36,169 nt of DNA from Mizuhopecten yessoensis (taxonomy: Eukaryota): assembly GCF_002113885.1 (NCBI RefSeq), contig NW_018407955.1, forward strand, positions 800,480 through 836,648, given 5' to 3'. Under the pieces are notes generated by a model. That model saw only the letters and a program-made list of their open reading frames with translations. It was not told the origin of the DNA and did not search any database. Position numbers and translations under genes: made by a program. Of the stretch, positions 1,190-29,223 are shown piece after piece (positions within the stretch are counted from its first letter, which is position 1; each line of letters starts with the position of its first letter).

Positions 1190-1249
1190 CTCAAAGTGGT
1201 TGTTGAAGGCGAGCTGGATCCTTAACCGTGCATGGTCAGATGTCTCTAC
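1190..1249 (-). CDS. MVP: MVP exon 17 (VETSDHARLRIQLAFNNHFE); last MVP exon found in the window
   Basis: Acceptor gaacag, donor GAG|GTATTT. Matches [20 protein letters not shown]. 60 nt, phase 0. The next expected exon ([19 protein letters not shown]) was not found in 1-1189. Confidence 0.88.
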
Positions 1250-1721
1250 CTGTTCAAAAATTCAAATAAGTTGCATGACATTTTTTTCATTTTCAAAAGA
1301 AAATTTAATTCAACAATGAAATAAAAATCTAAACTAGAATGAAATTGATTTTGAATAACAATAACGAATTAATGCTACTTAAAATTACATTTTTTTTTCC
1401 AAATCTGATATTTTGGTCCCATTTGTCAAAAACATGATTTAGCCTAACAACAACTTCATGCAAAACTTAAATCTAATGTAATTTCAAGAAAAATGAAATT
1501 CAAAAATGATTTTTTTATGAATAGGGATTCAAAATATTCATCATAAAGCCAGAAACACAAATAATTGTACGCTTCAAGGTATTTCTCAAAAATGATTTTT
1601 TGGAAAATTTGTATTTTGTAAATTTTTAAGTGAATCAGTGTTTGAAAAACAGGCCCCTGGCCTTCATTTTATCTGATAAACCGATAATTACTTAACAATC
1701 CAAATAATAACAAGAATGAAA

Positions 1722-1962
1722 ACATTGTTTTGGTTTGTTTGTTTGTTAGTGCTTCACGTCCGACTAACAGCAATGGTCATTTAACCCTTACACCTAAGTT
1801 GACCACAATGGACTCACCATGATAAATGTATGGTAGAGTCTACTAAAGTTACCTAGGGGTGAAAGGGTTAAGGACGTGCCCTTGACCCCGTGGTGGAGGG
1901 TTAGTGATCCTAGATGTCGGACATCTTCATCACTCGGCCACCACGGCCCCTCAAAGCTTTGT
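1722..1962 (-). mobile_element. tRNA-derived SINE copy X1 (minus strand; head GGGGCCGTGGTGGCCGAGTG, (AAAC)n tail)
   Basis: Shares head and body with the copies at 7510-7803 and 9443-9690. A- and B-box-like motifs are on the minus strand. (GTTT)n on the plus strand at 1725-1745. Confidence 0.7.
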
Positions 1963-2043
1963 CACACCACCAAAGGTTCACTTTTACACTTGAGATCCAA
2001 CGGCCAAAAGTAATTCAAAATTTCAGAAGTACGGTATACATAC

Positions 2044-2123
2044 TTCTAGAATGTCTGTGATAAAGTCTGGTCCCAGCATCAGACACAGAGATTTCATTGC
2101 ACCCTCCTTCTTAGGTTTACCAG
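2044..2123 (-). CDS. MVP: MVP exon 16 ((A)GKPKKEGAMKSLCLMLGPDFITDILE)
   Basis: Acceptor attctag, donor GAA|GTATGT. Matches [29 protein letters not shown]. 80 nt. Confidence 0.9.
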
Positions 2124-2965
2124 CTAGAATATAAAAAAAACTCGAATAAAAACTTAAATTGTACAGAAACATACAAACAAATTAATAATAATAATAATTC
2201 AAGGTTCTTAGATACATGTACCGCTTTATCACAACCTAGTTTGTAGGTCATCTCAAAGTGGTTCACAAATTATTTTCCCTGGTTATAGGGCCTTTGCAAC
2301 CAGCCAATATGTTTCTCAACTCCCTGGGGAGCATACAGCCAGTGCTGCCATTTCTAGGTCGCATTTGATTGTGACTATGTAATTACAGATTATATATTTA
2401 TCGCCAAAAACAAGCCTAATTGGGGGGAAAATGCTGGCCGTCAAAATAAGTTCTTAATTCCTTGCAGTCAAACATACCTCAAAAATAAGCTGTTCCTGAA
2501 AAAAGGCCTAATATTCCAAGGAAAACATCATGTCATGAATTGATGTCCTGTGGTCAAACACCAGGTATTTCCAATTGTTACAATTTAAATTTGTTTATTG
2601 ACATTTCCTGGTTTCCATCAGTATTTATCTCTATCCTTGCTAGTTAGTCTGACAATCATAGTGATCTCATTTCTTGCAATGAAAATAAGCAATTCTTGTC
2701 TTACTGTCTAAAAGGCTACGGAAATAAGACTACAAAAATGTATATGATAATAAGCCAGCTTTGAAAATAAGCCCGAGATCCCTTACTATATACAGAAAAT
2801 AAACCTTAGATTCCTTACTTAAAATAGAAAATAAGCCCGAGATTCCTTCCTAAAAATAAAAAATAAGCCACAGCTTATTATCAAGATTTTAGGGTATATA
2901 TAACATGCTTAAAGTTCAAAGTACCATACCAGCAGATCAGAAAGTTTGTATCCTTTTGACCTTAC

Positions 2966-3062
2966 CACTTAGGCTGAGGACATTGAAATTTTCGTGAGGT
3001 CCGAGGATGACCAGGTCTGGTCCGAACACGACACGTGCTGTCTTCTCCAGGTAATTATACAC
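2966..3062 (-). CDS. MVP: MVP exon 15 ([32 protein letters not shown]-)
   Basis: Acceptor atcaacag, donor G|GTAAGG. Matches [32 protein letters not shown]. 97 nt. Overlaps ORF 2937..3128(-). Confidence 0.9.
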
Positions 3063-3414
3063 CTGTTGATGCAGGTAAAAATATTTGATAAATACACCTG
3101 TCTCAACTAAAAACAGAAAAACACTCATCTCAAAAATAAAGTTGGATATTATTTTATGGTTACAGTTCAGTTATAAATAAAGTTTTGACCATGTCAACAA
3201 ATGTCTTTTCTTCTTAATGAATTTTTAAAACTATTCCCAGGATCTCCTTTTTAACCCTGATCATCTGAAGAGTGACAGTTAAGTCATTTTACATGAGATA
3301 CATAATTATTCATTACAACAAGAAATGGCAATTGTACATTAAAATCATGTATAACTCATTATGATATACCGGTACATACAAATTGTTGAAGTTGTCTCCC
3401 TTAAACATCTTTAA

Positions 3415-3497
3415 CTCATTCACCCCTGAAATTTCATAATAAACTATACCAACCTTTGAATTGGAAGAGTTCAAATGTGTCTTCAGGGGTGAATGAG
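3415..3497. mobile_element. TTAA-flanked hairpin mini-element (20-bp TIR ctcattcacccctgaa.. / ..ttcaggggtgaatgag), copy Z1
   Basis: TTAA at 3411-3414 and 3498-3501. The same element appears at 35021-35102. Related copies lie at 11704-11769, 26712-26808 and 18660-18735. Confidence 0.65.
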
Positions 3498-3536
3498 TTA
3501 ATCAATGAGATGTCCCTCTTCACTCTTTCTGTACCG

Positions 3537-3655
3537 TTGTCGTGTACACACGACAACGTGTACACACAACAATAAAATGTCATCCTGGTCTCCGTTGTTG
3601 TGTACAGACGACAAAATAATGGGCCGTCTAATGCGTTGTCGTGTACACACGACAA
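3537..3655. repeat. Tandem array of 20-bp near-palindromic units (ttgtcgtgtacacacgacaa x3-4), next to mini-element Z1
   Basis: Units at 3537-3556, 3557-3572 (partial), 3595-3614 and 3636-3655. Each can form a hairpin. Confidence 0.7.
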
Positions 3656-4194
3656 GAGACGTTGGTGTAACCTGTCTTGTGTTTAGCTGGTTATCGCACA
3701 CGACTGTCGCATAATACAATTAATTGTCGCTAAAATCAGCACTAATCAGTTGGAAAGAAATATTTTTATAGGTGCAGAGTACAGAATTTTCCTTAAGTGA
3801 CCTATTGTTTTCAAATTTGCCACAAGATGTTTGCGTTTGGTGTCTCAAATAGAATCAAGATGGTGGCAACTTTATTCAATATGAACACTGGTAAATTCAT
3901 CACAAAATATTTATGGACACTTATGGAAGTAAATATGAATATTTTAATATAAGTCTTGAAAACAGGGAATTGTATTGTTTGTTACCGGACAAATGTCGAT
4001 TTCTCAGTCATAATCAGCTGCCAGTTAGTCATAATTCTGCGAAAATGAAGAAGTGTGTGTCTATGAACAACAACATGAAACAATAACAACATTTGTTCAC
4101 GTTTACCTGTTTATTTCTTGCAACAGTTACACCTCGTCTAAAAAGTACATTATTAATTTGCCATTTTGATATATGAGCGGGGGCAAGTCTAGTA

Positions 4195-4282
4195 AGGGCA
4201 TCCGGTATGGAATCTGGACCAGATTTGCGTTACGGAATCCGGACCGGAATGGCGGTACGGAATCCGGACCAGATTTGTGATA
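4195..4282. repeat. Short tandem repeat (acggaatccggacc[a/g]gat.. x3)
   Basis: ggaatctggaccagatttgcgtt / acggaatccggaccggaatggcggt / acggaatccggaccagatttgtgat. Confidence 0.6.
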
Positions 4283-5342
4283 CAGAAAGAGTTAAACATC
4301 CTAAATTAATGAGTTGTCTCCTTAAACACTCTTAATTAAGGGGTTGTCTCCCTTATATAACATTTTTATATATTTACATAATCATATGTTATTACCAGTT
4401 ATGTTGATATTCATATGTGTACTTTTAACTTAATAACCTTGTCCAAAATAATCCATTGAAAACTATTTTAAAGCTGTTTAACTGTCAAAGTATTTTGAAA
4501 AGAAAATATATGCCACATTGAGTAATCAGCATACATCCTTAAGTCAAGTTGTGTTATCTTTAATTTGATCATTTCTAAACATTACACAATGTGTAAAGTG
4601 TTTTTATCTAAAATGACAATATGAAGACATCTGTTGTGAGAAAGCAAACTTAATCTTGTTGACACAATCGTGAAGTTCGGCCTTACCTGTACAGCTGTGT
4701 TGCCAGGACAACGAAATGTTACTACATGGCCTTTCCTACGTCCCTATAATCAGGATAAAAAAATCAAATTATTGTTTTTAAACAAAATACCTGTTTAATG
4801 ACGATGCAGTTGTGTGTTTCTCATTCATGCTAAAATGTCCAAAAATAGTCTCAAATGATTGATTCATAAGAGCCAAAAATAAATATGACATTTCTTTCCA
4901 CTGTAGGAAATAACCAGCACATTAAGAGACATTTGTTTTACCTGCAGACACATAAACGAATCAGATTCCCAAATGCATGCAGTACAAAAATACATAAATT
5001 CATTTTCAATAGTTTGTTTAACTTTGTGCAAGTTTAGGATAAAGAAAAGGCCTGCTTGTTCCACTTTATATCGGCAACCAATATAATGTGGGAGACAAAA
5101 TATTGCATAATTTGTGTTTAGGTTGGTGTCCTATGCTTTAATTTCAGAACATAGAAAAAGTAGATCTGCAAAACTCATTGCAACAATGTACTTCAATGAC
5201 TCTCTGGGTAAATATCATTACCATTCACTTTACCCACAAACTTTGTTTCGCTGTGTGATCAGTTTTTGTTGGCGGTCTGTGCGTCTAGCAGAACATCTTT
5301 AAGATCAGTCTCTATATCTGGTTAACTCTGTGATCATCTTAC

Positions 5343-5421
5343 CTCGAGTATCTGTGGGTCTATTGATTGTTCAAAGTAGGCCATCTTCCTGATGTCTCCT
5401 GACCCAGAACCTCCTCCTTGT
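5343..5421 (-). CDS. MVP: MVP exon 14 ((K)QGGGSGSGDIRKMAYFEQSIDPQILE)
   Basis: Acceptor ttactacag, donor GAG|GTAAGA. Aligns with KGQDPLADRG...TRVVSYRVPHNAAVQV. 79 nt. Confidence 0.8.
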
Positions 5422-6839
5422 CTGTAGTAACACAAGGGTAGAGTCAGAGACACAAAACATAGCAGAAATCATAAATATTAAGACAAACAAAAGGTCCAAA
5501 GTGCCTGTATGATTCACCTGTCAAGAAAGATTTTTTTTACCTTGATTTGATTACAGTAAAACTGTTATAATGCCACCCATCAAACCGCCAAACCTGCATA
5601 CCGCCATTAATTTACTCATAACGGATTTCCCCAACAATAATGCACCCGTTGTAATGCCAAACCCACATACCGCCATCATATTTCCAAAACAATTGGTTAA
5701 AATCACACATTTTTGACTTCGTTATATGTCGCCAATTGGAGTTGAGTACAGGTATATCCCGATGACAGGGATGTTACGTACGTGTGTACATTGTATTGTT
5801 ACACGTGACTGCCGACTGACCAGGTAATCAGCTGTATGTTTTGCACTCTCAATAATTTGATATATTAAATTCCATTTTAGAAAAAAAAAAGGTATCCTGA
5901 AGTAAATTTCTTAAATTTTTTAAAGTATAAGTTCAGTTGGTGTGTGAACACTTGGGTTTAAAACTGTAAAACCGATATACCGCCAAACTCATTATACAGT
6001 GGAACCCACTTATTATGATATCGGTTATTATGATATTTTCTCCGTGTACCGATTTTTCCTTCTTTAACTAAGCAAAACAAAATTGTTTAATATGATATGG
6101 TCAAAGGTGGGACCCCGCTTATTATGATATTTTTTCCGCCGTGAATGGATTTTATAAGGTAAAAACTCAGATAAGTTGTCCGTGTGAAAAAACCTTTACA
6201 AATAAACAATAGGTCCGGCTAACTGTACATCTCCCCAGGTGATCGCCTGTCCACTCCAGGTAAATTTTTCACACCTCGCGTCCACAGGGACCTGGGAATT
6301 TTTTACAGCTATATTTGGACCTAAACTAAGATGTTATAAGAGTATTTTACATGTTAATGAGGTTTAGATTGACTTTCGGTAAAAATGGCATCCCCAATGA
6401 TTATAATATACGGAGAAGGGAGGAAAGCTCTTGATGTCGAAATGTCGACCTCACCGAACTTTCTTGCATCAAAAACAACATTTCTAGTTGATCTACAGGA
6501 AAATGCTTAGTACCGTTTGGAAAGTTGGATAAGTTTTCTTTTAAACACTGTTAAAATCTCCCTGTGCCTGATGTTCTTATAGGTCAAATCCAAGCTTTTC
6601 TATTCTAAATCTGTTCAGTCATTTTTAGAAAGTAAACTTTGAACCCTTTCTTGATCTATTGTTCGTTTAAGCTGAATTTTCAAGAATTATCAAAATAAAC
6701 TTTTATATTGACATCATATGACGCCCTGAAGACAAGACAGCATTAAGTCATCAGTGGTTAGGAAACAGTTGACACACTTCACAATTCATCCCTAAGTCAT
6801 CTCTAAAATCAATAAACAGTATCAGACTCGTCTTCTTAC

Positions 6840-6934
6840 TTGAGGAGAGTTTCTGTATCTTCAGGCAGGACCTTTGTCCAAAGTTCTTCGTTCTCCGTCA
6901 ACATGTACGACTGGGGTCCCATCTCTGCCCTCAC
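6840..6934 (-). CDS. MVP: MVP exon 13 (VRAEMGPQSYMLTENEELWTKVLPEDTETLL-)
   Basis: Acceptor ttctacag, donor AA|GTAAGA. Matches [31 protein letters not shown]. 95 nt. Confidence 0.9.
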
Positions 6935-7380
6935 CTGTAGAATACACCACATATAAGCAGATGAGAGTAAAAAAACAAAAGATTACCGCAAAACTTTTTT
7001 TATATCTTAAATCAATAAATAATACAGGTACATATGTATATGCAAAATCCCATATTATTTCATATAATAAATACCAATGTAACAGCCTGTCTGATTGGAT
7101 TATTTTGGTGTGATAAAGAAATAATTGCCCTTTTGGGTAGTAAAACACGAATCTTTGTTTTCCTATTATTATAATCGTGTTTTGCAAGGTTGCAAATATG
7201 AGAAATAACACCTGAGAGAGATACAAACTACAGTGTTTAAAAAGATACAATAGTAAATTTTGACAATGGTTATTGAATTTGTATATATTCCACTGCTAGA
7301 AGCATAAACTCCAAAGTTTATAACCAATCAGAAGGCTAATACTTAAGGGAATCCTCAAATATTTTTGTTGTATATTTTAC

Positions 7381-7441
7381 CTTGCCGGTCTTCCTATCCT
7401 GAACATAGATGCCTTCATTTTTACTTAAAGGGATCTGTGTC
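7381..7441 (-). CDS. MVP: MVP exon 12 ((R)[20 protein letters not shown])
   Basis: Acceptor atttttcag, donor AAG|GTAAAA. Matches [21 protein letters not shown]. 61 nt. Confidence 0.9.
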
Positions 7442-7509
7442 CTGAAAAATAGATTTCATGATCATTAGTATAATTCACCAAAAAGACTGCTGAAGAAGTT
7501 AGTCCAACA

Positions 7510-7803
7510 TTTAGTTTGTTTGTGTTTTAATTCCTATTAACAACTTTAGTCATTTAAGGACTTGCCAGATTTTTGTGGTGGAGGAAAACCGGAGTTCCCA
7601 GAGGAAACCACCAACCTAGTGTGGTAGCCAAAACCGGAAACTGCCCACCTTGGCCTTGAAACCTTAACCCATTGGTAGAGGGCTAGTGGTCACAGATGGT
7701 CAGATGCCTTAACCACTTGGCTGATATGGTCCCATGGTCAAACATATCAGCCTTAACCACTTGGCTGATATGGTCCCATGGTCAAACATATCAGTCTTCG
7801 GAA
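7510..7803 (-). mobile_element. tRNA-derived SINE copy X2 with a 44-bp tandem duplication of the head (7716-7759 / 7760-7803)
   Basis: The body at 7556-7715 aligns with 9497-9690. The unit ccttaaccacttggctgatatggtcccatggtcaaacatatcag is duplicated. Degenerate (GTTT)n tail at 7512-7528. Confidence 0.7.
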
Positions 7804-8498
7804 CAACAAATGTTTTTTCTTAAGATACAAAGTTTTTCTTTTGCTTCAATCTGTATTAGGAGGAGGGCCTAAATGTACATATCTCTTACTTTAATATTTT
7901 TTACCTTTGTTAACACTGTATTTACACTTGCACTGCATATCCACTCTATTAAACTACCAAATAAAGTAAGTGTCTGTAGCACAATGAATGCAAAAGAATT
8001 GCGGTTCATTCATTAAGCTCTTGGTCATTGTGACTCTTGACTCTTAACAAAGTTGAGTAGCTTCAAATCAAACACTCAAGTGCTGTTCTGTCAATATCTC
8101 CCTTGAAGGCATCAAAGTTATCAGAGAAAGCCTTCAAACAAATGACTAATTTTTTGGAGTGTTAATAAAAAAGATTAAACATAATATTTTGTTATTGTCA
8201 TACAAACACACTTGTATGTATTGTTGTGGCTTCCTCTTGTATCTGTTGCCTAACAGTTAATTATTTACCCTGTCACCCTATGTAACTTGAGTAGACCATT
8301 TATGCATTGACATGGATGAGTCCATTATTGTCTACAGGGGCAAAAGGGTTAAAGTATAATATCTATATATAAGTTCAAACATTTGACAAAGGTAATTTCA
8401 TATACATATATATATTCAATGAAAAACATACAACTTTTTAAATGTAAAGATTGACATCTTTTCCATAAAAACTTGAAAACAGACAACTCTCTGAATAC

Positions 8499-8592
8499 CT
8501 TTTGTCAACAACATTGACATGTAATGGCGGAGTGTAGTCTATTGGGCCGCGTATCATCCAACGGTCACCTGGACTTCTCTTCACGGCCTTAC
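8499..8592 (-). CDS. MVP: MVP exon 11 ((G)[30 protein letters not shown]-)
   Basis: Acceptor ttacccag, donor AG|GTATTC. Matches [29 protein letters not shown]. 94 nt. Overlaps ORF 8438..8707(-). Confidence 0.88.
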
Positions 8593-9079
8593 CTGGGTAA
8601 CGAAATACAAGTCTCATAAACAAAATGTTTACAAACACAGTAATACATTGTTGCTTGATGAGCATATTTTTCATGCAGGTCATATTCATATTGTTATTAT
8701 TATACATATCTACATAAAGTTAGGAAAACAAATATTTGATTGCTTTCCTTGGCAAAATCTAAAGAAATTGTAGAGGGATGGCTAGAAATATATATTCGGC
8801 AAAATATTCTCACAAATTATTCATGGATACACTGTAAATGAATGTTCCCAAAGAATCTGCAGATTTGTGAAACAGTTCACCTGATTAATTCTACATTTCA
8901 GTAAACATGTGAGGTTTCTTACTCCCAAAGAAAACTCACTCTTGCTGAATTTTGTATTTCTAGCAGGTGAAAGTGTTTTTTGTCGAATTTTCTCTCATCC
9001 ATTCAAATACTATGAACTTTACTTGAGATTTAATATTTCCTTCAGTATCAATGTGTGAGGTTTATTTTATATACAGTAC

Positions 9080-9184
9080 CTTTGCCTAAAACTTCCATTA
9101 TATATTCGTCAGCCTGAAGTACCAGAGCCTCATTATCAGACAAGATGTATGCACTTTGAACTTTGCCGTTCTCAAGGGTTTCGC
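9080..9184 (-). CDS. MVP: MVP exon 10 ((G)ETLENGKVQSAYILSDNEALVLQADEYIMEVLGK-)
   Basis: Acceptor atgttgcag, donor G|GTACTG. Matches [31 protein letters not shown]. 105 nt. Confidence 0.85.
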
Positions 9185-9442
9185 CTGCAACATAAATACC
9201 AGAATGTAACAATAATTAGGAACTTTCCTCTCCTCGTTGAGAAAACCTTATATCAAAACTTCTGTTCATCAATGTCGAGACAAAACTAATTTCCAAATGT
9301 TTTTCCAGAAAAAATATGACTTTAATGAATTGGTTTTTACAAGGATAAATCTTCAAAGATTTTTCAAATCAAATAACAATATTTCAAAGGTATTACTAAC
9401 TGAAATTACAAAAATGTTTTTAACATGACATCATTATCTTTC

Positions 9443-9690
9443 TTTTAGAGTATTTGTTTATTTATTTGTGTTTTGTGTCCTATAACCAGCTATGGTCAAT
9501 TAAGGACATGCCAGGTTTTGGTGGTGGAGGAAAGCAGGAGTACTCAGAGCAAAACAAATGACCTGGCGGCCAGTACATGGCAATTGCCCTGTGTAGGGCT
9601 TGAGCCCATGACCCAATGGTCAAGGTCTGGTGATCATAGACGGTCAGACACTGTAACCACTTGGCCACCGCGGCCCCTTTTTGGAGTCTA
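9443..9690 (-). mobile_element. tRNA-derived SINE copy X3; its head ends 22 bp from the MVP exon 9 donor site
   Basis: Minus-strand head GGGGCCGCGGTGGCCAAGTGGTTACAGTG...GGGCTCAAGCCC. Body shared with X1 and X2. Degenerate (GTTT)n at 9443-9470. Confidence 0.7.
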
Positions 9691-9711
9691 ATATGAATTA
9701 ATATTACAAAC

Positions 9712-9853
9712 CTGGATGGAGGAAAAAGCTGCAACATCCGGTACGGAGCTCCCTCTTCCCCAGCTGTGGTTTACAGTTTTTGTCCACTACATCCAATACG
9801 ATACAATACTCTCCCTTCTTCACCACAATTCTTTTTTCCTCAGACAATATTGT
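9712..9853 (-). CDS. MVP: MVP exon 9 (TILSEEKRIVVKKGEYCIVLDVVDKNCKPQLGKRELRTGCCSFFLHP-)
   Basis: Acceptor ttttgcag, donor G|GTTTGT. Matches [34 protein letters not shown]. 142 nt, ends phase 1. Confidence 0.85.
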
Positions 9854-10817
9854 CTGCAAAACAAAATACAGAATTCTATTTTGAGTATTGTTTTTTTTTG
9901 GAGTGGTACACTGGATAACACACTCATCCTTTATTAAGACAAAAGGTTTTCAAATTCCTAATCAGACATGAGAAGGCATTTGATCATCTGCCCAGACTTT
10001 TATCTGGGTAACCTTGTTTCTTCCCTTATTAAGACCCTCTATGTGCTTTCATCCATTAACGTAGATAGGAAGTCCTTTTTCCTTATTGTTGTAAAATAAA
10101 TAAAGTTTATACAGGTTTACGAAATAAAAAAATTATCAGGAATTCAGCCCAAATGAGATCTAGACTGTTTCATAGCACCTGGACACTGGGGTACTGGTAG
10201 GAGTGGGTCGACCCCCGGTGTCGAAGGCAACCTGTGTTGACCTCTAAATAGGGTCTTTAAATGATTCGATAGACAAAGGTTTATTTCAGAACAGCCCTTT
10301 ATCTAATTATCCAGTTGTGAAGTTCAAATATATGTGATATTATTCCAGGCAAATCCTTAGAAAAAATAAGTTGTCAGTCTCAAATTCAATGTTATATGTT
10401 TGCCTTTGAAATTTTATAACAATTACACTCTAAGAGAAGTGGAATGGATACATTATCTTCAGGATTTCAACACAGTTTATTGAATAGATTTTTTATTTAT
10501 TTTATTTTATGGAATTTGATTATTATTTATTCAATCTTGTTGAATATAGCACCACCCTTTTTAAACAAATTCATCATACTCTAAGTTTCTGTAGTATACC
10601 TAGGGTTATTAAGGCGCACTCATCGTTATTTACCAGTACAGGGCAGTGGCGGATCCATAGACCTATCTGGGGGGAGGGGGGCATGTGGGGAAAACTTCAG
10701 GAAAATAGTGAAAATACATGATTTTTAAAGAAATTCTCAGGGTGGGGGGTTCCTGAAGCCCAAAAAAACCCTCTGGATCTGCCACTGCAGGGTAGAATCA
10801 AGTTTTACAACTCATGT

Positions 10818-11769: not shown

Positions 11770-11846
11770 TTAAACGATCAGTTATATATTCTAGAGCTGT
11801 GTACTTTGTAATTTGCACTTTTGACCAAGACTTCTATAATACTGAC

Positions 11847-11913
11847 CACTCCTATCTCAGGCAGGTACTGTTCCAAGTCCTCACCGGTCACCAGCCATTC
11901 CTCACCTACCAAT
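11847..11913 (-). CDS. MVP: MVP exon 8 ((R)LVGEEWLVTGEDLEQYLPEIGV)
   Basis: Acceptor ttgtag, donor GTG|GTCAGT. Donor chosen because it keeps the vault-repeat length and phase. Matches [22 protein letters not shown]. 67 nt. Confidence 0.75.
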
Positions 11914-12282
11914 CTACAAAACAGAATCAGGAAATAAGAGGCACATTGGACCTGTATCTGTCACTTTTTTTGACTAAATCAGAATCTCATTGATAGTTTG
12001 ATTGATTCCGCTGTCACATTTATCTCTGAACCAATTTCGAGATGAAAAGACAATTGCTCGAGTATTTCATAGCAGAATAATATATGTGATATTTGTGAAA
12101 TAAATGTCACTCGGAAAATGAAATATAAAGTCACTGCATGATGACTTACTTGTACTGGCCAATAAACAAAATTCATCAAAATACTGACAATTTTTTTACA
12201 AATCATTCCTGAAAAGAAACTGATACCTTGTAGAACTTTTATGAAAATCAAGATAAAATGATAGAATGTAACAGGGCCACAC

Positions 12283-12365
12283 CAGGTTTTGAACCTTGCA
12301 CCTTATGTCTAAATACAGTCACTTAAACAAACTGAGCTGCCTGACCAGTGGATCTGTCCCACTGC
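12283..12365 (-). repeat. tRNA-like SINE head fragment (minus strand)
   Basis: rc reads ggtcaggcagctcagtttgtttaagtgactg...ggttcaaaacctggtgtggccc. Homologous to the head at 33470-33560. Confidence 0.45.
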
Positions 12366-12475
12366 ACTTTATAATCAAACCAAAATTAAGGGGAGACTTC
12401 TATATGTTTTAAAAACTGTAATGGAATTCCCTAGTGTTTAGCATGCAGTGGATCCTAAATCAGAACTGAAGTTAC

Positions 12476-12570
12476 CTTTTGATGCCCTGCCTGTCAGTAA
12501 TGGAGTGTGTCGCTTGTAATCTCAGGCCTTGATCGGGTGTCAGTGTGACCTGTTTCTCCACACCCAAAAC
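12476..12570 (-). CDS. MVP: MVP exon 7 (VLGVEKQVTLTPDQGLRLQATHSITDRQGIK-)
   Basis: Acceptor gttacag, donor AG|GTAACT. Matches [32 protein letters not shown]. 95 nt. Confidence 0.85.
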
Positions 12571-13227
12571 CTGTAACAATGGCAATCAGCATAATTGCTG
12601 TATTTATCTTGCAATAACCCCACGCCTGGCATTAAGCTCACACATATATATTGCAGTTTAGCAGCAATGCTACAAAATACTATTTCATTGTCATGTTATA
12701 AGACAATCCCTTTGTATTGACTTATTGCATGAGTAAATGTGATAACTTAGTTACAGTATATATCATATGGTAATGGTATTTTTATTTTCATTTTCCTCAC
12801 TTATGATTTTCAAACAATAATGTATTGATTTCTAAAAAGATATATCTCTAAATTTTCTTTAGAATTTTGATTCACATACATACTTATGTATTGCAAATGA
12901 AAATCAGATACAGCAAAGATTTTTTTTTACAAAGGGGCTACTAAGATAAACACTCCAGGCTGCAAATGCCTCTTCATGACTGTATTGTTTTAAAACAACA
13001 GTGCATATCATAGACACACGTTTTGACTGAATGAGTAACAGCAGATAGCTCGTCCAATTTGAAACTTTTAAACCGCCATCATGTTTTGATGAAACTAGAT
13101 GCATACCTATCAGCTTCTAGTTTAAACATGTTTCTAGGGCCATTTTCCTTTAAACGGTTGAACCGGTCGGACCACAGCTGTTCGTTTATTAAATAAGGTT
13201 GGACCTAGTAATCTGATGCTGCTTTCA

Positions 13228-13275
13228 GGCAAGCCTTGTCAAAGCCTTGACAAAGCCTTTACAAAGCCTTGCAAG
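13228..13275. repeat. 10-bp tandem repeat (acaaagcctt)x4-5
   Basis: caagccttgtcaaagccttgacaaagcctttacaaagccttgcaaggcc. Confidence 0.8.
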
Positions 13276-13407
13276 GCCTGCATAAACATTTGCGATCCGC
13301 CAGGATTATATACCCGAAATTGATACATTTAAAAATGAACAAACCGGTTGTTCTGCATAAACAAACGGTTCCTGGGTTATGTCGAGTCGATGTTTGTTAA
13401 TTTTTAC

Positions 13408-13477
13408 CTTTTCATATACGTCCGGGAGGTAGTCTCCTGTCGTGTAATGGATCCACTCCTCACCGGTCACACGCTCC
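13408..13477 (-). CDS. MVP: MVP exon 6 ((V)[23 protein letters not shown])
   Basis: Acceptor ctttaaag, donor AAG|GTAAAA. Matches [24 protein letters not shown]. 70 nt. Confidence 0.85.
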
Positions 13478-13911
13478 CTTTAAAGAAAAATCTATCAAGT
13501 TGACATGATTAAAAGAATTTAATAAGTAGACCTTTTTATGACACCAAATAGTACTTAAGGTTTTGTGACGGGAGAACGTATTCAAAAAGAGAGCCACCAT
13601 TATATTCCCCAGCGGAAATCTTGCAAAATTCTATTTTTAGTGTTAGTGACCTTGACCTTGAGCCAGTCATGCCCAGAATTAACACGGTTTTTGACATTAC
13701 AAAGGGCAACAATCAAGCTATCATTCAGACTACTCCAACAGTGTTAGAGGTTTCCACGGCGAGATACTTTATACAGGAGCGTAGTCGGCAAATTCATATC
13801 CGATAGAAACAAGAGGCCCATGGGCCTTAACGGTCACCTGAGTCCTACAATATTTATTTTTGTTGTTGAAATATGTACCAATTTGAGTAAAAAATAGTAT
13901 AATGTTAACTT

Positions 13912-14372
13912 AACTTTGTCAGGACCATGAGCTGATCATTCCTAGACCAATTTTAAGTGAGATCGGCCTATTAGAACTTAGTAGCAAAATAGCGGCCATG
14001 GCAGCCAAATTGTATTTCTGATTGACCCGAAAAATAACAACACTTTGTCAGGACCATGAGGCGATCATTCCTACCAACTTTCAGTTCAATCGGTCCAGCA
14101 GAACTTGACTTTAAGTTTGAAATAGGTTTTCAAAATGGCGGCCGTGGCGGCCATATTGGATTTCTGATCGACCCGAAAAATAACAACACTTTGTCAGGAC
14201 CATGAGGCGATCATTCCTACCAACTTTCAGTTCAATCGGCCCAGCAGAACTTGACTTTAAGTTTGAAATGTAAAATGTTAACGGACGACGGATGACAGAC
14301 GACGGACGACGACGGACGAAAACGGATAGCAATAGGTCACTTGAGCTAAAGCTCAGGTGACCTAAAAAGGCA
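13912..14372 (+). repeat. Tandem-repeat element: ~146-bp unit x ~2.6 followed by an ACGG-rich tract and a terminal hairpin (aggtcacttgag..ctcaggtgacct)
   Basis: Units start at 13912, 14042 and 14188 (actttgtcaggaccatgaggcgatcattcctaccaa...). Tail 14271-14372 is acggacgacggatgacagacgacggacgacgacggacgaaaacgg + hairpin + ctaaaaa. Confidence 0.75.
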
Positions 14373-14689
14373 TACCAGCGGCCACTTATGTTATAGGAGT
14401 ATCATTCAGACAAGAAAAACCATGTCAAATTCACTTTTTAGCAACTGTTAGAATTCCCATGATTCTGTGTGCCTATTCTGTAGTGCACTTCTGGCGATGT
14501 TATTGTGATATGAGTACTACGCCAGAACATCACCAGAATATCAACGCTAGGGCGGCAATATTCTGGGCATTTCTGGCAACACGTTCTGGTGAACTGATTT
14601 ATGTGCAGCGGTATTGCTGCAATATAGCCGTAATATCACTGCAGACTTTCTCATTTTTGTAAGGGCTTGCTTGGCCATGTTCTACATAC

Positions 14690-14781
14690 ACGCCATTGCA
14701 GTCCGTGAAGTACACAGTTGCGCTGAGTCTCAGTCCCTCTCCATTCTGCAACACTATCGGTTCAACCATCTTCTCTATTTC
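14690..14781 (-). CDS. MVP: MVP exon 5 (EIEKMVEPIVLQNGEGLRLSATVYFTDCNG-)
   Basis: Acceptor atttgtag, donor GT|GTATGT chosen by phase. Matches [32 protein letters not shown]. 92 nt, ends phase 2. Confidence 0.75.
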
Positions 14782-15199
14782 CTACAAATTAAACAAACAA
14801 AATTAAGAAAGTTAATTTCTTAAGAATTCAGCTTAAAACAGAAAACATTGATCCAACATCCAAACTATACATCCTATGGGCTACCACAGAATGATACATT
14901 TGGGACAAACTGGCTGCGATGAAACTTTGCAGTTTTAAATGAACAACACTGGAACCAATTTACCTTGCTACCATTACATAACTTTCTATTACCGGTAGTG
15001 GGGTTGTATGTAACTATACTCATATTTCAAGGGTGAAGATGACCATTTCCTTGTCCCAACCTGAGTGAGACATTCTGAAAAATTTCTTGATGTCGCAATG
15101 AAGCTAAATGAGTCAAGTCACTTTTTATGCATGAACATTATCTCTTTCCAACAATAGACAAAACACTACGAATTTCCAATGCTGATTTGTGTACATACA

Positions 15200-15335
15200 G
15201 TAACCTCCCTGTAATTTCAGTTTGGTAATAACTGCAGTATTACTGGGTCAGGTCAACTTCTGTCCACCAGGTAGCTCTGGCTGTTATAGTGACAGTATAA
15301 AGATCCAAAGTCCGGGTTCGAATCCTGATCAGTTT
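15200..15335 (+). repeat. tRNA-related SINE-like repeat, family V copy (acagtaacctccc... + tRNA-like GGTAGCTC..GGGTTCGAATCC)
   Basis: Shares a leader and tRNA-like A/B boxes with 17950-18090 and 27418-27730. Does not fold as an intact tRNA. Confidence 0.5.
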
Positions 15336-15828
15336 TATTTTACTTTTATACTGTATAACATGAAATGTTCATTGTGTATAAACATTTATTTTCGTGGATT
15401 TTATTGAACCACGAAAATAAATACAAGGAATTTGAATGATATGCGTGTCTTTTGTGTGTTAATATGGAATATGCATGAAAGTTTGTACCACGAAACAATC
15501 TAAATGACTTCAAACCACGAAGGAAAGTCCCCACGAACATCTCGTGTTATACAGTACTCAGAACACTGCTGTGGATTCTTTTATGGTTTATTTATCACAG
15601 GGGTGTTTTTTTCATAAAAGTTCTGCAATGTATCTTATTCTTTTCAGAAATTATTTATCAAAAGGAGCTACACTCAATTTCAAAGCTTTTCGATTTTACC
15701 ATTACACTGCTGCAGGATTCCTTTGATCTTCATCAGACATTAGACTTGTCTACATGTATTATCCGCAAGGTGCTGTGTAAAGAGCCTTTAATTTTATCTT
15801 TAATAAGATTCATCAGTTTGGAAATATG

Positions 15829-16170
15829 CTATATCAAAGTTTTGCTTTCTACACAAACAATGTACATACGCGACGTTTTAAGACCGACTGGTCCCTTTGT
15901 CAAGCTATGACTGAGTGAGCGATTTGTATTTTTTACCTGTACAATGATGTAATGCTGTAATTAAACTATCTGATGCAGTGTGTATACGATAGGCGAAACG
16001 TCCCGGGTCGAGTGACTTCAAAAATATACAATTTCGTCAGATTGTTGTACTGGTAAAAAATACAAATCGCTCACTCAGTCATAGCTTGACAAAGGGACCA
16101 GTCAGTCTTGATACCTTGTGACACGCTTAAAATCTACATTTTTTGTGCAGAAAGCAAAACTTTGATATAG
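15829..16170. mobile_element. Foldback/MITE-like element with ~110-bp terminal inverted repeats
   Basis: Left arm 15829-15938 (ctatatcaaagttttgctttctacacaaacaatgtacat...gaccgactggtccctttgtcaagctatgactgagtgagcgatttgtattttttacc) is near-identical to the rc of the right arm 16040-16170. Confidence 0.7.
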
Positions 16171-16409
16171 TCTTTAATTTTGTCAAAGCATCTTACAGGC
16201 CCCGGGATCATGACACAATTTAAGACTGAAGTGTTTGCTTAGCCAATCACATATAACGTTACATTTCATGAAATTATTGTGATTGGTTGACTTCAGACAA
16301 TTTTTGACTGAAGATCGATTCATGATCTCGTGAATCAAAATCAGAACCATTGGATTCCAAGGTAGGCTATACAGTTGAAACTGGAGGGATGAGAGATGAA
16401 ATGACTTAC

Positions 16410-16634
16410 CGCTTCAGGAGAAGGGAAATAGGTGAGGGGGCCTTTCAGCTGCCACTGGTCCCCAGCCTGATATTTCCCCATCTCATTTTCAAAGTCCACC
16501 AGTGCTCTCAGTCTGATTGCATGGTTAGCCTTTACCGTAGGGAGGGGCTTCAAGGCTGGCGCATAGCTTGACCTACCTGTTTGGTACTCAGGGGCCCCAC
16601 TAAGGACCTCGCCAGGCAACAGGGGAAAGGGCTC
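16410..16634 (-). CDS. MVP: MVP exon 4 (EPFPLLPGEVL...ANHAIRLRALVDFENEMGKYQAGDQWQLKGPLTYFPSPEA)
   Basis: Acceptor attgtag, donor GCG|GTAAGT. Matches DPFPLYPGEVL...[35 protein letters not shown]. 225 nt, phase 0 to 0. Overlaps six-frame ORF 16341..16619(-). Confidence 0.9.
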
Positions 16635-17439
16635 CTACAATACCAACAATATCTCATTGTAGTAGAAAACACCATTTTTCCTATAGTCCCGTCCCATTGG
16701 TTGGATCATAATCACATGGAGGTCAGTAATTTAGGATATTGATTAGGTGTTACTTTTATTTTGGAACAGCAGGTTAATAATCTATTTATGACCTTGTTTC
16801 AACTGTAATGTAAAAATGCTCTCTGCCAAATGCAGTAGATTTCTCCTGACAATTTTTATACATTCCATCTTGTTAATAATAGAAATGAGATTCATTATTC
16901 GGTATTAATTAGAGACTCTTATTCAGGTGAAAATGTGGTTAAATGGACGTGAAAAATAGATAATGACCCGGACTTTGTATATGTCTATATCACATTCTCA
17001 GATCCATAAAACCACATATATTTACCTTTACAAAAGTCCATCACTGATAAATAGTCTCACAGCAAATATAGCTGTTCTTGAATATTTGTTGGCAGGTGTA
17101 GTTTCCCTACTTTGTCCCTTACCATTCCCACTCCAACACCTCCCACCTTGATAGGTAGGTAGAGACTATTTTTTTCATTTTCGGACATGTCTGGTTTCTT
17201 AGTTTGAAACATTAATTTTGAGGATTCTTTCAGCCAAATGTTGTTTGTTTATTAAAAGTTAATTGGAAAAAAAAAGTAGTTATCAACTATGGGGAACTGC
17301 AAACAATTTTTACTGATAGCCTAGTGACTCATTTCAAAATGTCTTTGAATATTCATGATCAACGTCCAAATAATTCCTTCATTCCAAATATCTTGTCATT
17401 CTGAAACAGTAGTCACTGATTCTTTATACATTTCCAAAA

Positions 17440-17530
17440 ACTATTGACTTTTAACCCCTGACCACTGTAGACCTTAATAGATTCACCCAAGTCAATGCAT
17501 GGTAGAGTCTAGTAAAGTTACATAGGGGTG
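17440..17530 (-). repeat. Partial copy of the SINE-X 3' region
   Basis: ggtagagtctagtaaagttacataggggtgaaatgg and upstream bases match 1790-1870. Confidence 0.5.
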
Positions 17531-17644
17531 AAATGGTAAATATTCTATTATTCCATAACCGTATGTGCTATTTGTTTAAGTTCACCAATTTCATTGTTAA
17601 TAAAACATCTACCCCCCGTAGGTGAACTAGAGGTGACTACTTAC

Positions 17645-17708
17645 CTGGTAAAATTTGTACTGTTTTTGGCCCAGAAGGTTCTGACTAACTTGACCAGGTA
17701 CATAATTC
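17645..17708 (-). CDS. MVP: MVP exon 3 ((M)NYVPGQVSQNLLGQKQYKFYQ)
   Basis: Acceptor ttttttttcttcag, donor CAG|GTAAGT. The single leading base completes the ATG codon from exon 2. Aligns with GQVRLRHADLEIRLAQ (GQV conserved); a few residues shorter than the vertebrate protein here. Confidence 0.65.
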
Positions 17709-17949
17709 CTGAAGAAAAAAAATCACAGGGATCAGACATTATCTATCTTTTGTAGAATTGTTAAATATTTGAAAAAAAAAATTAATGTACATGTATATAT
17801 ATTCATTACCAATTATGTGAAAACATTGTTACAGTGCAAACCTCAGTCCAATGAAAGTTTTATGTCAAAGAAAGAGTCAAGAATTCATCTGTCACCCCTA
17901 CATATCAATCCCCAGTATGTTAACCTCAGTACCGTATTTCCTCTGTAGA

Positions 17950-18090
17950 ATTTCATATATACAGTAACCTCCCCTTAATTTCATTTTGTGATGTAATTGT
18001 ATTGGGCAGAAGCACTACCGTTGACCAGGTAGCTCAGTTGGTTAGAACAACCGTTTACTGATCAGAGGTGTAGGGTTTAAATCTTGGAGA
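17950..18090 (+). repeat. tRNA-related SINE-like repeat, family V copy
   Basis: acagtaacctccccttaatttc...ccaggtagctcagttggttagaacaaccg...gggtttaaatc. Confidence 0.5.
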
Positions 18091-18225
18091 AGCCCCATTG
18101 CATTTTCACAATAAGAATACTGTTGTTGCTTCATTTTTGTTAATTACATCATTGTCAGCTTTTCACAAAAGTTTTGCAAGTATGGTTTTCTTTTTCGATA
18201 GGAGTTGTCAAAGCTATAGTAATGC

Positions 18226-18611
18226 CATCCTCGATATCCAGGGGTTACGCTCACTTTCCCTCTCTGCACCCCTGGAATATGTCATAGCAAAATTGAAGGC
18301 ATGAACATAGCTGTTTGATTGGTCTCAGGTAAACAAAACTGAACAATAGCTAGGCTGATACCTGTCCTTTGAAGATTACAAAGGCGAGCCACCTGACTTC
18401 AAAGCGGATTTAGCCTGTCAATTTTTACTGTTATGTGACCATGATATTCTTTTGATGTACATCAAACTAGTCTTCTTGTTTCAGCAACAAGGTGGGAGCT
18501 TTGTTGCAGAAACAAGAAGACTAGTTTGATGTACATCAAAAGAATATCACGGTCATTTGCTTCCAGGGGTGTAGAGAGGAAAGTGAGCATAACCCCTGGA
18601 TATTGAGGATG
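18226..18611. mobile_element. MITE copy 1 (~70-bp TIRs, internal 105-bp palindrome), in the MVP intron between exons 2 and 3
   Basis: Left TIR catcctcgatatccaggggttacgctcactttccctctctgcacccctggaa. Right TIR is its reverse complement, ending ...ccaggggtgtagagaggaaagtgagcataacccctggatattgaggatg. Degenerate 9-bp flanks tagtaatgc / cagtattgc. Perfect 40-bp inverted repeat at 18445-18549. Confidence 0.75.
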
Positions 18612-18659
18612 CAGTATTGCTAGAAAATACAAGAATCTTTAAGAAATTTCATACCTAGA

Positions 18660-18735
18660 TACTTTTGTAAACTCATTCACCCCTACATTTATAAACTGGA
18701 CTTGCCCAGTCTTTGATTTGGTAGGGTTGAAATGT
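18660..18735. repeat. Family Y mini-element copy (inverted orientation)
   Basis: rc reads cctgaaagccacatttcaaccctaccaaatcaaagactgggcaagtccagtttataaatgtaggggtgaatgag. Confidence 0.5.
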
Positions 18736-18792
18736 GGCTTTCAGGGTACATGTACGGTATATGGTTAATAAATGTTTAACAAATATACATAC

Positions 18793-18926
18793 ATGCAAGG
18801 GTTCTCTATGACACAGTAATGCCCTGGAGGGACTTTGATCATAGGCAGGGGCCCTCGATGTAGCTTCTCATTGTTCTTCAGAACAACTGTCTTTGGACCG
18901 ATATCAATACTGGTGATATTCCTGTT
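18793..18926 (-). CDS. MVP: MVP exon 2 (NRNITSIDIGPKTVVLKNNEKLHRGPLPMIKVPPGHYCVIENPC-)
   Basis: Acceptor tttttttaacag, donor CAT|GTATGT. Matches human [44 protein letters not shown]. 134 nt, ends phase 2. Confidence 0.85.
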
Positions 18927-20326
18927 CTGTTAAAAAAAATCAAAAAAATCTGATGATTAATTAATTAATTCAAACTACTCTCAAACTACATCAGACTTAT
19001 GACCAGTGCAAATATTAGTACTTGCCTAAAACATTGTCTACATATCCTATCTTACAGTTTGTTACCAAGTGTACTGTCGGTGTAGTATACCTTGACTATC
19101 TCTCCCATGAACATCTCTTGATTGTTCAGAAGATGTTGTACAAAACACTGTGTTAAAGCCGGACTACAGACAAACAACTGATATCACACCATGGTATAAC
19201 AACTTAACATGCTGTTTGGGCAGGTGAGCTAAAAATGAGAAAAAAAGTGATTGATTCAAACCAAAATTTCGCTTTAATCTATTAGAAGTCAGCAGAGTTA
19301 ATTAGCACTAATTCAGTATAATTGAGCAAGAATCCTGCTCATGAGGCAAAGGAAAAAGAAATACTTTTACCCATTTTGCTAGCCAGGTTTCTAGCCTTAC
19401 CTATAGTGTTTGTACCAGGAAAAGTCAGGATTGCATAATTCAATGAAACATCCTATTTTGTTATGGATCAGATGTACATATGCACAAAACCTTTACCTTT
19501 TAAATGTCCGACTTTGAAGTCCATTGTAAAACATGATATACTATGGGTTGCAAACTTTATATCATAAGTCGTTAAGAAAACATTTATCATTGTCTTGGAT
19601 TGAACATATATATATATATATTTCTGTATCTTGGTATCGACCTAATAAACTTATTTCATGATAAATAACATTAATTTATATTATGTGTTATTATTTACAA
19701 TTTGCTGGCTTAATGCGTTGTATATATTCTCAGAACACAGTTTACTAAATTAGTAATTGGTTATGGTCGATCACAGAAAATATTGCTCTGCCATTTTTAG
19801 TCCTTGCTTACTTTTATGTGTGCATTCTCTATTTTTAGTTTGCTTGCATGATTTTGTTTTTATGTTGTTGTAAAGATATGCTTGTATGTATTCGGTTAAA
19901 AGCTCATTAGAGCTTATGTTTGTAGTTTGTAACTATACCGAATTAAAATAAAACTTTCATATATATATAATCATATATACATGATTAACCGATTGGGAAC
20001 TCTTTTTTATGACCACCTTCTGTAATGAACTTAGTGTTAGCACATTCTCCGGGCCTCTAATTACGTGCAAAAAAACATGGAAAGCATAAAATAAGATATA
20101 AACAAAGTGCACGCAGAGATTTTATGGTAAAAAAAAACAAAAAACTATCGATAGTATACTTTCACGACGGCAACTTTCATAGCCTATGGACATCGTGCTG
20201 AGTCGACAACTTCGACATTGTCACAACCAGGGCAGTTGCATTGACAACTGTCAAAAACTGTCAGAAATTCCCCATAAATATTGCTTTATATTAATTGACA
20301 ATTGTACAAATTTGTATTTTACTTAC

Positions 20327-20386
20327 TAGATCAGTCACATGCACATAAAAATGTGGCTTCAGACCGATAATGCTGCCGGTAGCCAT
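20327..20386 (-). CDS. MVP: MVP exon 1 (start codon; MATGSIIGLKPHFYVHVTDL)
   Basis: ATG = rc of 20384-20386, ~45 bp downstream of TATA. Matches the [20 protein letters not shown] N-terminus of MVP. Donor GTAAGT (rc of 20321-20326), phase 0. Confidence 0.75.
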
Positions 20387-20428
20387 AGTTGTCGTTTTCT
20401 ATGTCTATTCTTGTCAATGACGCGTTTG

Positions 20429-20436
20429 TTTATAAA
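20429..20436 (-). promoter_or_regulatory. TATA box (TTTATAAA) of the MVP promoter with adjacent GC box (GGGCGG, rc of 20438-20443)
   Basis: TTTATAAA lies 43-50 bp upstream of the exon 1 ATG on the minus strand. GC box immediately upstream. Implies a TSS near 20400 and a very short 5'UTR. Confidence 0.55.

Positions 20437-29191: not shown

Positions 29192-29223
<32 letters not shown>

Follow-up and report, generated by a model that had tools for sequence, protein, structure and literature searches.

After analyzing the window, that is, the whole 36,169-nucleotide stretch of Mizuhopecten yessoensis DNA presented here, we are highly confident that it holds the 5′ two thirds of an intron-rich, functional protein-coding gene from the MVP (major vault protein) family, and that this gene belongs to a divergent branch of the family, clade A. 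When the 18 coding exons found on the minus strand, from 20386 down to 1190, were joined, they gave 1677 nt, or 559 codons, with zero stops, and the translation was 100% identical to residues 1-559 of RefSeq XP_021364577.1 (P0001), an 856-aa M. yessoensis protein that NCBI names "major vault protein-like isoform X2". The same protein is also filed as OWF45014.1 and as UniProt A0A210Q8G1, and isoform X1 differs from X2 solely in two C-terminal residues, which lie beyond the window. Since the gene is already present in RefSeq and UniProt, its identification adds nothing new; the practical value lies in a corrected map of 18 exons, one of which is easily skipped without breaking the reading frame.

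An earlier note on this DNA had described a minus-strand, multi-exon, phase-consistent MVP coding sequence that stays open when its exons are joined. Our 18-exon model, which begins with the ATG at 20386 and stops at the donor that follows 1190 (...LAFNNHFE), agrees with this description, with consistent phases and all introns of the GT..AG type. The counts did not hold, as 17 exons and 540 residues had been claimed. Likewise, the upper bound of the proposed exon sizes (60-225 nt) was right but the smallest exon measures 57 nt, and the proposed span of 1190-20436 is coding from 1190 to 20386, with 20387-20436 lying upstream of the start codon. The splice junctions listed below are predicted from consensus sites and from identity to the RefSeq model, itself a prediction; exons 5 to 13 and 15 were placed by tblastn and joined-CDS identity.

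Exon 1: 20327..20386 (-), 60 nt, ATG at 20386, residues 1-20; joined-CDS identity
Exon 2: 18793..18926 (-), 134 nt, remainder of R1 and start of R2; tblastn 100% to P0001 21-65
Exon 3: 17645..17708 (-), 64 nt, R2 loop (NYVPGQVSQNLLGQKQYKFYQ), 7 residues shorter than in vertebrate MVP
Exon 4: 16410..16634 (-), 225 nt, 13-residue insertion and repeat R3; tblastn 100% to P0001 87-161
Exon 5: 14690..14781 (-), 92 nt
Exon 6: 13408..13477 (-), 70 nt
Exon 7: 12476..12570 (-), 95 nt
Exon 8: 11847..11913 (-), 67 nt
Exon 9: 9712..9853 (-), 142 nt
Exon 10: 9080..9184 (-), 105 nt
Exon 11: 8499..8592 (-), 94 nt
Exon 12: 7381..7441 (-), 61 nt
Exon 13: 6840..6934 (-), 95 nt
Exon 14: 5343..5421 (-), 79 nt, QGGGSGSGDIRKMAYFEQSIDPQILE; recognised only on comparison with P0001
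Exon 15: 4687..4743 (-), 57 nt
Exon 16: 2966..3062 (-), 97 nt, repeat R9 (Pfam Vault_3)
Exon 17: 2044..2123 (-), 80 nt, AGKPKKEGAMKSL loop, which corresponds to the "keyhole loop" in human MVP
Exon 18: 1190..1249 (-), 60 nt, beginning of the SPFH-like shoulder domain; last residues ...LAFNNHFE, donor gtattt

Upstream of the start codon of exon 1, an in-frame TAG lies at a distance of 15 nt and a TATAAA at 20434-20429, 48 nt away from the ATG; the start codon has A at -3 as well as G at +4, and the exon ends at the donor gtaagt. Exon 2 lies between the acceptor ttaacag and the donor gtatgt. Exon 14 (acceptor ttactacag, donor gtaaga) has a counterpart block in the Argopecten and Ylistrum loci and is likely the exon that the earlier note left out. 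A reading that leaves it out and takes an inner AG at 4737-4736 stays open and phase-consistent for 530 residues, so the omission would look right by eye. This 17-exon model, resuming at 4735, was nonetheless contradicted by the comparison with P0001. Two other candidates were rejected. At 6492-6450, an exon of 43 nt with the acceptor cctgtag and the weak donor gtcgac is open and in phase, but 12 gaps against P0001 fall exactly there. A 21-nt "intron" within exon 4 (gtaggt...ccag) has too little length for one, and what it would remove is coding sequence that other scallops and other phyla conserve.

The assignment to the MVP family, also made by the earlier note, is sustained by domain order, colinearity with solved MVPs, the predicted fold and the complete identity to the NCBI "major vault protein-like" entry; orthology to human MVP is not, as the gene is the scallop's divergent second MVP paralogue. 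In a Pfam scan, for which the query was our first, 547-aa model with a wrong exon 14, Vault (four matches, E 7e-52), Vault_2, Vault_4, Vault_3 and the start of MVP_shoulder (its first 30 profile positions fall within the window) all exceeded the curated cut-offs, and the vault repeat families followed the canonical order from residue 49 to 517 of that model. The colinearity and the recurring G[DE]xW motifs noticed earlier were both recovered, with residues 5-548 of solved chains aligning to residues 4-559 of the query in one stretch (E 2.7e-143) and the motifs standing at residues 144, 197, 250 and 360. The AlphaFold model of P0001 (mean pLDDT 82.7) predicts beta repeats to about residue 510 and then an alpha/beta shoulder, seen in full as the segment 532-645 and as a precomputed PF11978 match; in the cap region, outside the window, it places long helices at 648-715 and 723-802. 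When this model was searched with Foldseek, the top 17 matches were all MVP, the best being rabbit, human and rat vault structures (813-855 columns, E about 1e-75 to 1e-57), and SPFH proteins came next. The TMt against R1-R7 crystal structures was 0.59, whereas the global TM-score to solved MVP chains was low (0.33-0.38) because the isolated monomer model bends between domains, unlike the chain in an assembled shell.

The 3′ end of the gene lies outside the window, as had been proposed, since tblastn with the annotated residues 560-856 matched nothing there; in particular, the exon following exon 18 is absent from 1-1189 by this search. The remaining 297 residues occupy eight exons in the orthologous loci, and eight more exons, coding for what is left of the shoulder together with the cap-helix and cap-ring, would accordingly be expected beyond window position 1. 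Because the window gene is the divergent paralogue, the downstream motif that the earlier note had anticipated belongs to the other scallop MVP gene; the window gene continues with FERGNRESELSIFSVPDFIGNACRQIGSRIRG.

The most visible departure from human MVP is in repeat R2. A shortened first repeat had been noticed, and the 7-residue loss is real, although it follows the PP at residues 53-54 and thus falls in R2 rather than R1. It is followed by a 13-residue insertion (the SGAPEYQTGRSSYAPA region), so R2 is net longer than its human counterpart. The resulting R2 segment lengths are 25/20, compared with 32/7 in all vertebrate-type sequences. Clade A conserves this insert, for which the AlphaFold model gives a short helix at 101-105 with a pLDDT of about 87-92. 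Identity to human MVP, judged earlier by eye as roughly 45%, came to 249/535 aligned columns (46.5%), or 44-45% over the full length, and is this low because the gene belongs to a divergent paralogue clade.

M. yessoensis carries a second MVP gene on another scaffold, encoding the 859-aa XP_021364753.1 (P0235). P0001 is 47.7% identical to P0235 and 44% to human MVP, while P0235 is 63% identical to human MVP, 70% to that of Xenopus and 94% to its Argopecten counterpart. Judged by sequence, P0235 is the human-type orthologue and the window gene the divergent paralogue. A distance-based NJ tree of animal sequences, with no outgroup from outside animals, recovered the bipartition into clades A and B in 200/200 bootstraps and placed the window gene in clade A, apart from vertebrate MVP. 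One gene from each clade was found in 23 species; therefore, P0235 is unlikely to be a contaminant or an assembly artefact. It might still be argued that the window gene is the single canonical scallop orthologue and that phylogenetic distance alone lowers its identity to human MVP. NCBI gives both scallop genes one name, most species are said to have one MVP (PMC11219742), and the sea urchin is said to have a single homologue (PMC550661). However, the second scallop gene and the tree placement speak against this, as do the residues R9, D39, R437 and W545, which are invariant in 29/29 clade-B sequences and are G, N, G and N in the window gene. We regard this explanation as barely tenable.

The window gene thus bears the marks of clade A in its tree placement, its 25/20 indel pattern and its N at the W545 column, a residue shared by 23/23 clade-A sequences; the R437 column in this clade holds G, A, E or D. 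Sponges, cnidarians, annelids, brachiopods, molluscs, echinoderms and hemichordates have clade-A members, and chordates apparently have none. With a mean distance of 0.61 vs 0.25, clade A evolves about 2.4x faster than its canonical counterpart, and the scallop protein is 52-60% identical to its sponge, coral or brachiopod counterparts, compared with 76-81% in clade B. Clade A may represent an ancient second MVP lineage that predates the sponge-bilaterian split, is apparently missing in chordates, evolves about 2.4 times faster and has its waist and NAD+-binding residues replaced; we put this forward tentatively, rating it at slightly less than an even chance. No description of such an old two-clade paralogy was found in the vault literature searched.

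The fast rate, together with the loss of several conserved interface residues, might instead indicate a decaying duplicate, a pseudogene whose frame is open in the window by chance. Selection argues otherwise. Against the orthologous loci of both Ylistrum and Argopecten, dN/dS was 0.11 at a dS of about 1.1-1.25, and the window gene is under purifying selection. Additionally, the frame is open throughout the 18 exons and along the entire 856-aa annotated protein, orthologues have been kept from sponges to hemichordates, and the predicted fold is confident. Non-functionality is therefore highly improbable. The orthologous loci comprise 26 exon blocks in Argopecten and 25 in Ylistrum (two being merged into one HSP), 18 of which match the window exons, and the gene is about 18 kb long in Ylistrum and 51 kb in Argopecten; in the window, its first 18 exons take up >19 kb.

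By homology, the protein of this functional gene would polymerise laterally into half shells of 39 copies, with contacts running between the repeats, shoulder and cap-helix, and two halves joined at their R1 ends would make up a hollow cage like that of a vault. Such cages may form from this protein alone or mixed with the canonical copy; no demonstration of cage assembly by any clade-A protein was found in the literature searched. Several residues of the human-vault waist, the roles of which have been described (PMC12280208, PMC13347060), are changed in the window gene (R9 to G, Q21 to L, Q38 to K, D39 to N and R42 to K), and these changes, like those in the NAD+ pocket, may alter function. 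It is conceivable that the product no longer closes a vault and instead forms half shells or an open assembly or has a non-cage role. The partly replaced waist contacts and the replacement throughout clade A of the clade-B-invariant NAD+-pocket residues R437 and W545 would be in keeping with this, and an extracellular, secreted structural role has been reported for the MVP of the salmon louse, a copepod (PMC11219742). On the other hand, the predicted protein keeps all twelve domains in order, including the long cap-helix that drives assembly in mammals, positions 7 and 36 are still hydrophobic, N22 and N40 are kept, and the N-terminus, read directly, does not resemble a signal peptide. We consider the loss of vault closure unlikely, although considerably less so than the single-orthologue or pseudogene explanations.

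Elsewhere in the window, Rfam at gathering thresholds and a tRNA scan returned nothing, and the region 20.4-36.2 kb yielded no second cellular gene; in Argopecten and Ylistrum, too, no gene is called in the 10 kb upstream of MVP. Of the longer open frames that lie outside the exons, six were compared with Pfam and had zero matches; four of these are upstream of the gene and two intronic (10818-11168, plus strand, and 6864-7295, minus strand). A reverse-transcriptase fragment lies at 23357-24412. The idea that the frame at 10818-11168 is a retrotransposon tail was unsupported, as it does not match this fragment. Near the start codon, a scan for sigma-70 promoters and terminators gave chance-level results, and its model is not applicable to an animal gene.

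Should the clade-A lineage prove both real and undescribed, vaults of two kinds, or mixed ones, may be built by marine invertebrates, and these might differ in opening or ligand behaviour. As a caution, an invertebrate entry described as "MVP-like" and ~45% identical to human marks the paralogue rather than the orthologue, and bivalve expression or proteomic studies reporting "MVP" may mix two genes. A pan-metazoan gene pair of which chordates have lost one member would also supply natural variants of the waist interface and the NAD+ pocket, which could serve to test the proposed vault-opening and ligand-binding mechanisms.

Compared with vertebrate MVP (human Q14764-type; PDB 4V60, 4HL8, 9BW5, 9Z4W), the window gene has the common order of R1-R9, shoulder, cap-helix and cap-ring, and it is colinear over its entire window-encoded part, with GxxW motifs at matching columns. 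However, it shows only 44-47% identity, differs by the R2 deletion and insertion (7 and 13 residues) and by the replaced residues R9, D39, R437 and W545, belongs to the other paralogue clade, and has far more introns (the orthologous Argopecten locus shows 26 coding exon blocks). It resembles the clade-B MVPs of scallop (P0235) and other invertebrates in family, length (856 vs 859 aa) and architecture, and the two types occur in the same genomes. Its closest relatives are the clade-A orthologues of Ylistrum balloti (P0002), Argopecten irradians (P0003) and others, including further molluscs, the Lingula "major vault protein alpha-like" protein, echinoderms, hemichordates, cnidarians and sponges, with which it shares the 25/20 indels and the N in place of W545. 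Identity to the scallop orthologues is 78-80% with the 547-residue query and 84% to Argopecten over the full length; exon blocks match within Pectinidae, and the differences amount to species-level divergence and gene span. MVP paralogues are also found in two independent lineages, Dictyostelium and trypanosomes. Dictyostelium has several MVP genes in one organism, and their products, MVP-alpha and MVP-beta, enter the same particle. The trypanosome MVP paralogues offer a further precedent for several MVP genes with products in one particle, according to PMC12547018 and PMC11219742.

The window is AT-rich over most of its length (34-38% G+C), and an ORF scan of the region turned up no long frames of bacterial type. 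Its minus strand carries a string of short stop-free stretches whose translations resemble the major vault protein (MVP). For the exon model, splice sites were inspected directly, candidate exons were joined, and the product was compared with the annotated protein of the window gene, P0001 (XP_021364577.1). The initial joined product was open, comprised 547 residues and matched 2397 database proteins; the top match, 'major vault protein-like isoform X2 [Mizuhopecten yessoensis]' of 856 aa, was P0001 itself, at 96% identity and 100% coverage. Pairwise alignment showed 100% identity outside one block. The sole mismatching block, a 43-nt exon at 6492-6450 (minus strand), was rejected, and a tblastn search with P0001 located the residues absent from the product at 5423-5337 of the window. 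The final model has 18 exons, all introns being GT..AG and 446-1993 nt long, and its stop-free CDS of 1677 nt (559 codons) translates into positions 1-559 of P0001 with every residue identical. The following features accompany the model.

Start and splice features of the window gene (all minus strand)
20386: ATG start codon, with an in-frame TAG 15 nt upstream and a context of A at -3 and G at +4
20429-20434: TATAAA hexamer that may be a core promoter element, 48 nt before the start codon
6450-6492: 43-nt splice decoy with AG/GT ends, frame-compatible between exons 13 and 15, giving an open but wrong protein
5421-5343: exon 14
4735-4743: splice decoy, an inner AG of exon 15 that permits an in-frame skip of exon 14 and gives an open but wrong protein

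The gene is genuine and already annotated, and the earlier note, made from the sequence alone, recognised it correctly. A minus-strand MVP-family gene is confirmed by residue identity to P0001, by Pfam and by alignment to solved chains, and the coding stretch does begin with the N-terminus and extend to LAFNNHFE at 1190. As had been proposed, the 3′ remainder lies beyond positions 1-1189, since residues 560-856 of P0001 have no credible tblastn match anywhere in the window. The GxxW motifs recur at residues 144, 197, 250 and 360, and the roughly 45% identity to human MVP estimated by eye agrees with 249 of 535 aligned columns (46.5%), or 44-45% over the full length. Correction is needed for the numbers of exons and residues and for the repeat to which an indel was assigned: 17 exons and 540 residues become 18 and 559, and the smallest exon is 57 nt rather than 60 nt. 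The omitted exon is likely exon 14; such a skip would escape the eye, since exon 13 joined to the inner AG of exon 15 still gives an open frame.

Family membership was equally clear at the level of domains and fold. Pfam returned Vault four times (E 7e-52), Vault_3, Vault_2 and Vault_4, all above curated cut-offs, as well as the first 30 positions of MVP_shoulder, also above its cut-off, and the solved rabbit, human and rat MVP chains gave one continuous alignment (E 2.7e-143 to 2.7e-136). In a structure model of P0001, built from a 67-sequence alignment (mean pLDDT 82.7), the beta repeats lead into an alpha/beta shoulder, and two very long helices follow (648-715 and 723-802). The top 17 Foldseek matches of this model were all vault structures, aligned over 813-855 columns with E down to 2e-75; flotillin, prohibitin, HflK/C, erlin and stomatin came next, consistent with the SPFH nature of the shoulder. 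Global TM-scores against solved chains were low (0.33-0.38), since an elongated chain on its own does not take the bend that it has in the shell; against the compact crystal structures of R1-R7, TMt was 0.59.

With the vertebrate-type MVP of a bivalve (P0112, from Mactra) as query, MVPs of this type proved to be widespread, occurring in scallops, mussels, gastropods, annelids, brachiopods, echinoderms, hemichordates, amphioxus, corals and sponges, and strongly conserved, with 72-92% identity to P0112. A cluster look-up placed both MVP types in M. yessoensis, on separate scaffolds.

Records and identities of the two M. yessoensis MVPs
Window gene: XP_021364577.1 / XP_021364576.1 / OWF45014.1 / A0A210Q8G1
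Other copy (P0235): XP_021364753.1 / OWF44899.1 / A0A210Q890
Window gene to the other copy, P0235: 47.7%
Window gene to human MVP: 44%; to Xenopus MVP: 47%
P0235 to human MVP: 63%; to Xenopus MVP: 70%

The low identity of the window gene to human MVP is thus due to paralogy. We built an unrooted, distance-based NJ tree of 52 sequences, including 23 species with one gene in each clade, and all 200 of 200 bootstraps separated clade A (divergent paralogues, including the window gene) from clade B (canonical, vertebrate-type MVPs). The mean distance was 0.61 within clade A, 0.25 within clade B and 0.79 from one clade to the other. Sponges, cnidarians and bilaterians are represented in each clade; therefore, the duplication would be older than their common ancestor, unless the unrooted distance tree misleads. 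No chordate clade-A sequence was present among the matches scoring above clade-B level, an absence from a list and not proof of loss. These comparisons suggest that animals from sponges to hemichordates have two MVP genes, a highly conserved vertebrate type and a faster-evolving type that includes the window gene. Most species have been described as having one MVP (PMC11219742, 2024), a single homologue was reported in sea urchin (PMC550661, 2005), and a broad evolutionary survey noted duplications in kinetoplastids and ciliates (PMC3762200). An animal-wide pair is absent from that survey and from the other literature searched, and may be described elsewhere. The window gene as a finding is of low interest, and this pair is the only element possibly worth following up.

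The orthologous loci of two other scallops contain the same exon blocks as the window gene, 26 in Argopecten irradians and 25 in Ylistrum balloti (two being fused in one HSP); 18 match window exons and 8 lie downstream. The gene spans 51 kb in the former (L001 10001-61124) and 18 kb in the latter (L002 10001-28056), so intron size differs nearly three-fold among scallops. The window CDS compared with both loci gave a dN of 0.12-0.13, a dS of 1.09-1.25 and a dN/dS of 0.11 (540-549 codons); judged by these codon comparisons, the gene is under strong purifying selection.

No second cellular gene was found upstream (20.4-36.2 kb), and scans of the window for tRNAs and Rfam families were negative. 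Both the introns and the upstream region contain repeats of the interspersed and inverted kinds, along with several tandem arrays. The G+C rise at 22-26 kb is due to the open frame at 23357-24412, a retrotransposon fragment, and the short inverted-repeat elements look like miniature transposons.

Repeats and other open frames in the window
23357-24412, minus strand: open frame of 352 codons that includes part of a reverse-transcriptase domain (Pfam RVT_1, E 1.4e-16)
10818-11168, plus strand: 116-codon open frame opposite to MVP, within its intron 8; it matches no Pfam family and does not resemble the upstream reverse-transcriptase fragment
13985-14269, intron 5: 146-bp unit in tandem, 2.0 copies, 94-95% identical
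15875-15944 / 16045-16114 (intron 4), 28702-28768 / 28945-29011, and 18228-18338 versus 28906-29016: inverted-repeat elements, arms 67-111 nt and 93-97% complementary, with related copies in intron 2 and the upstream region
27894-28057: 47-bp unit x3.5
29193-29222: 30-C run
22871-22927: (CAAT)14
7706-7798, intron 11: 44-bp unit x2.1

The two clades also differ at positions implicated in human vaults. There, residues R9 and D39 lie at the contact between vault halves, and their equivalents lie in window exons 1-2; the columns of R437 and W545, in the NAD+ pocket, fall in exons 17-18 (2044-2123 and 1190-1249, minus strand).

Waist and NAD+-pocket residues (human numbering)
R9: R in 29/29 of clade B, mostly G in clade A, G in the window gene
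D39: D in 29/29 of clade B, T/N/D/S in clade A, N in the window gene
N22 and N40: largely kept in both clades, kept in the window gene
Positions 7 and 36: I (some L/V) in clade B, hydrophobic in clade A, I and V in the window gene
R437: R in 29/29 of clade B, G/A/E/D in clade A, G in the window gene
W545: W in 29/29 of clade B, N in 23/23 of clade A, N in the window gene

The basic equivalents of K504 and K506, together with D521, are retained in both clades. From these substitutions we infer that clade-A shells would have a different waist chemistry, lacking the Asp39-centred pH-sensitive contact, and that clade A probably would not bind NAD+ in the manner of human MVP. Clade-A proteins may build cages of their own or assemble together with clade B. 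Multiple MVP paralogues occur in one particle in Dictyostelium. The same is described for trypanosomes (PMC12547018).

The first repeat had also been described as shorter. A 7-residue gap relative to vertebrate MVP does exist, but it follows the PP at residues 53-54 and falls within the Pfam Vault_2 match (residues 49-99); in the AlphaFold model its place is in the second strand cluster, which is the second repeat, R2. Tanaka et al. (2009) reportedly set the R1/R2 boundary at Pro55/Arg56. The gap is directly followed by a 13-residue insertion, in which the model predicts a short helix (101-105, pLDDT about 87-92). An N-terminal alignment of 28 named homologues resolved the R2 segments into two discrete patterns, and among the best 120 matches the pattern was either about 25+20 residues or exactly 32+7, the latter being found in all vertebrates and in some sequences of invertebrates, the species concerned having 25+20 as well. 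The NJ tree of the matches divides along these patterns. In the mouse R1-R7 crystal structure, the long beta2-beta3 loop of R2 overlies R1 (PMC2752026), and it is this loop that is shortened in the window gene.
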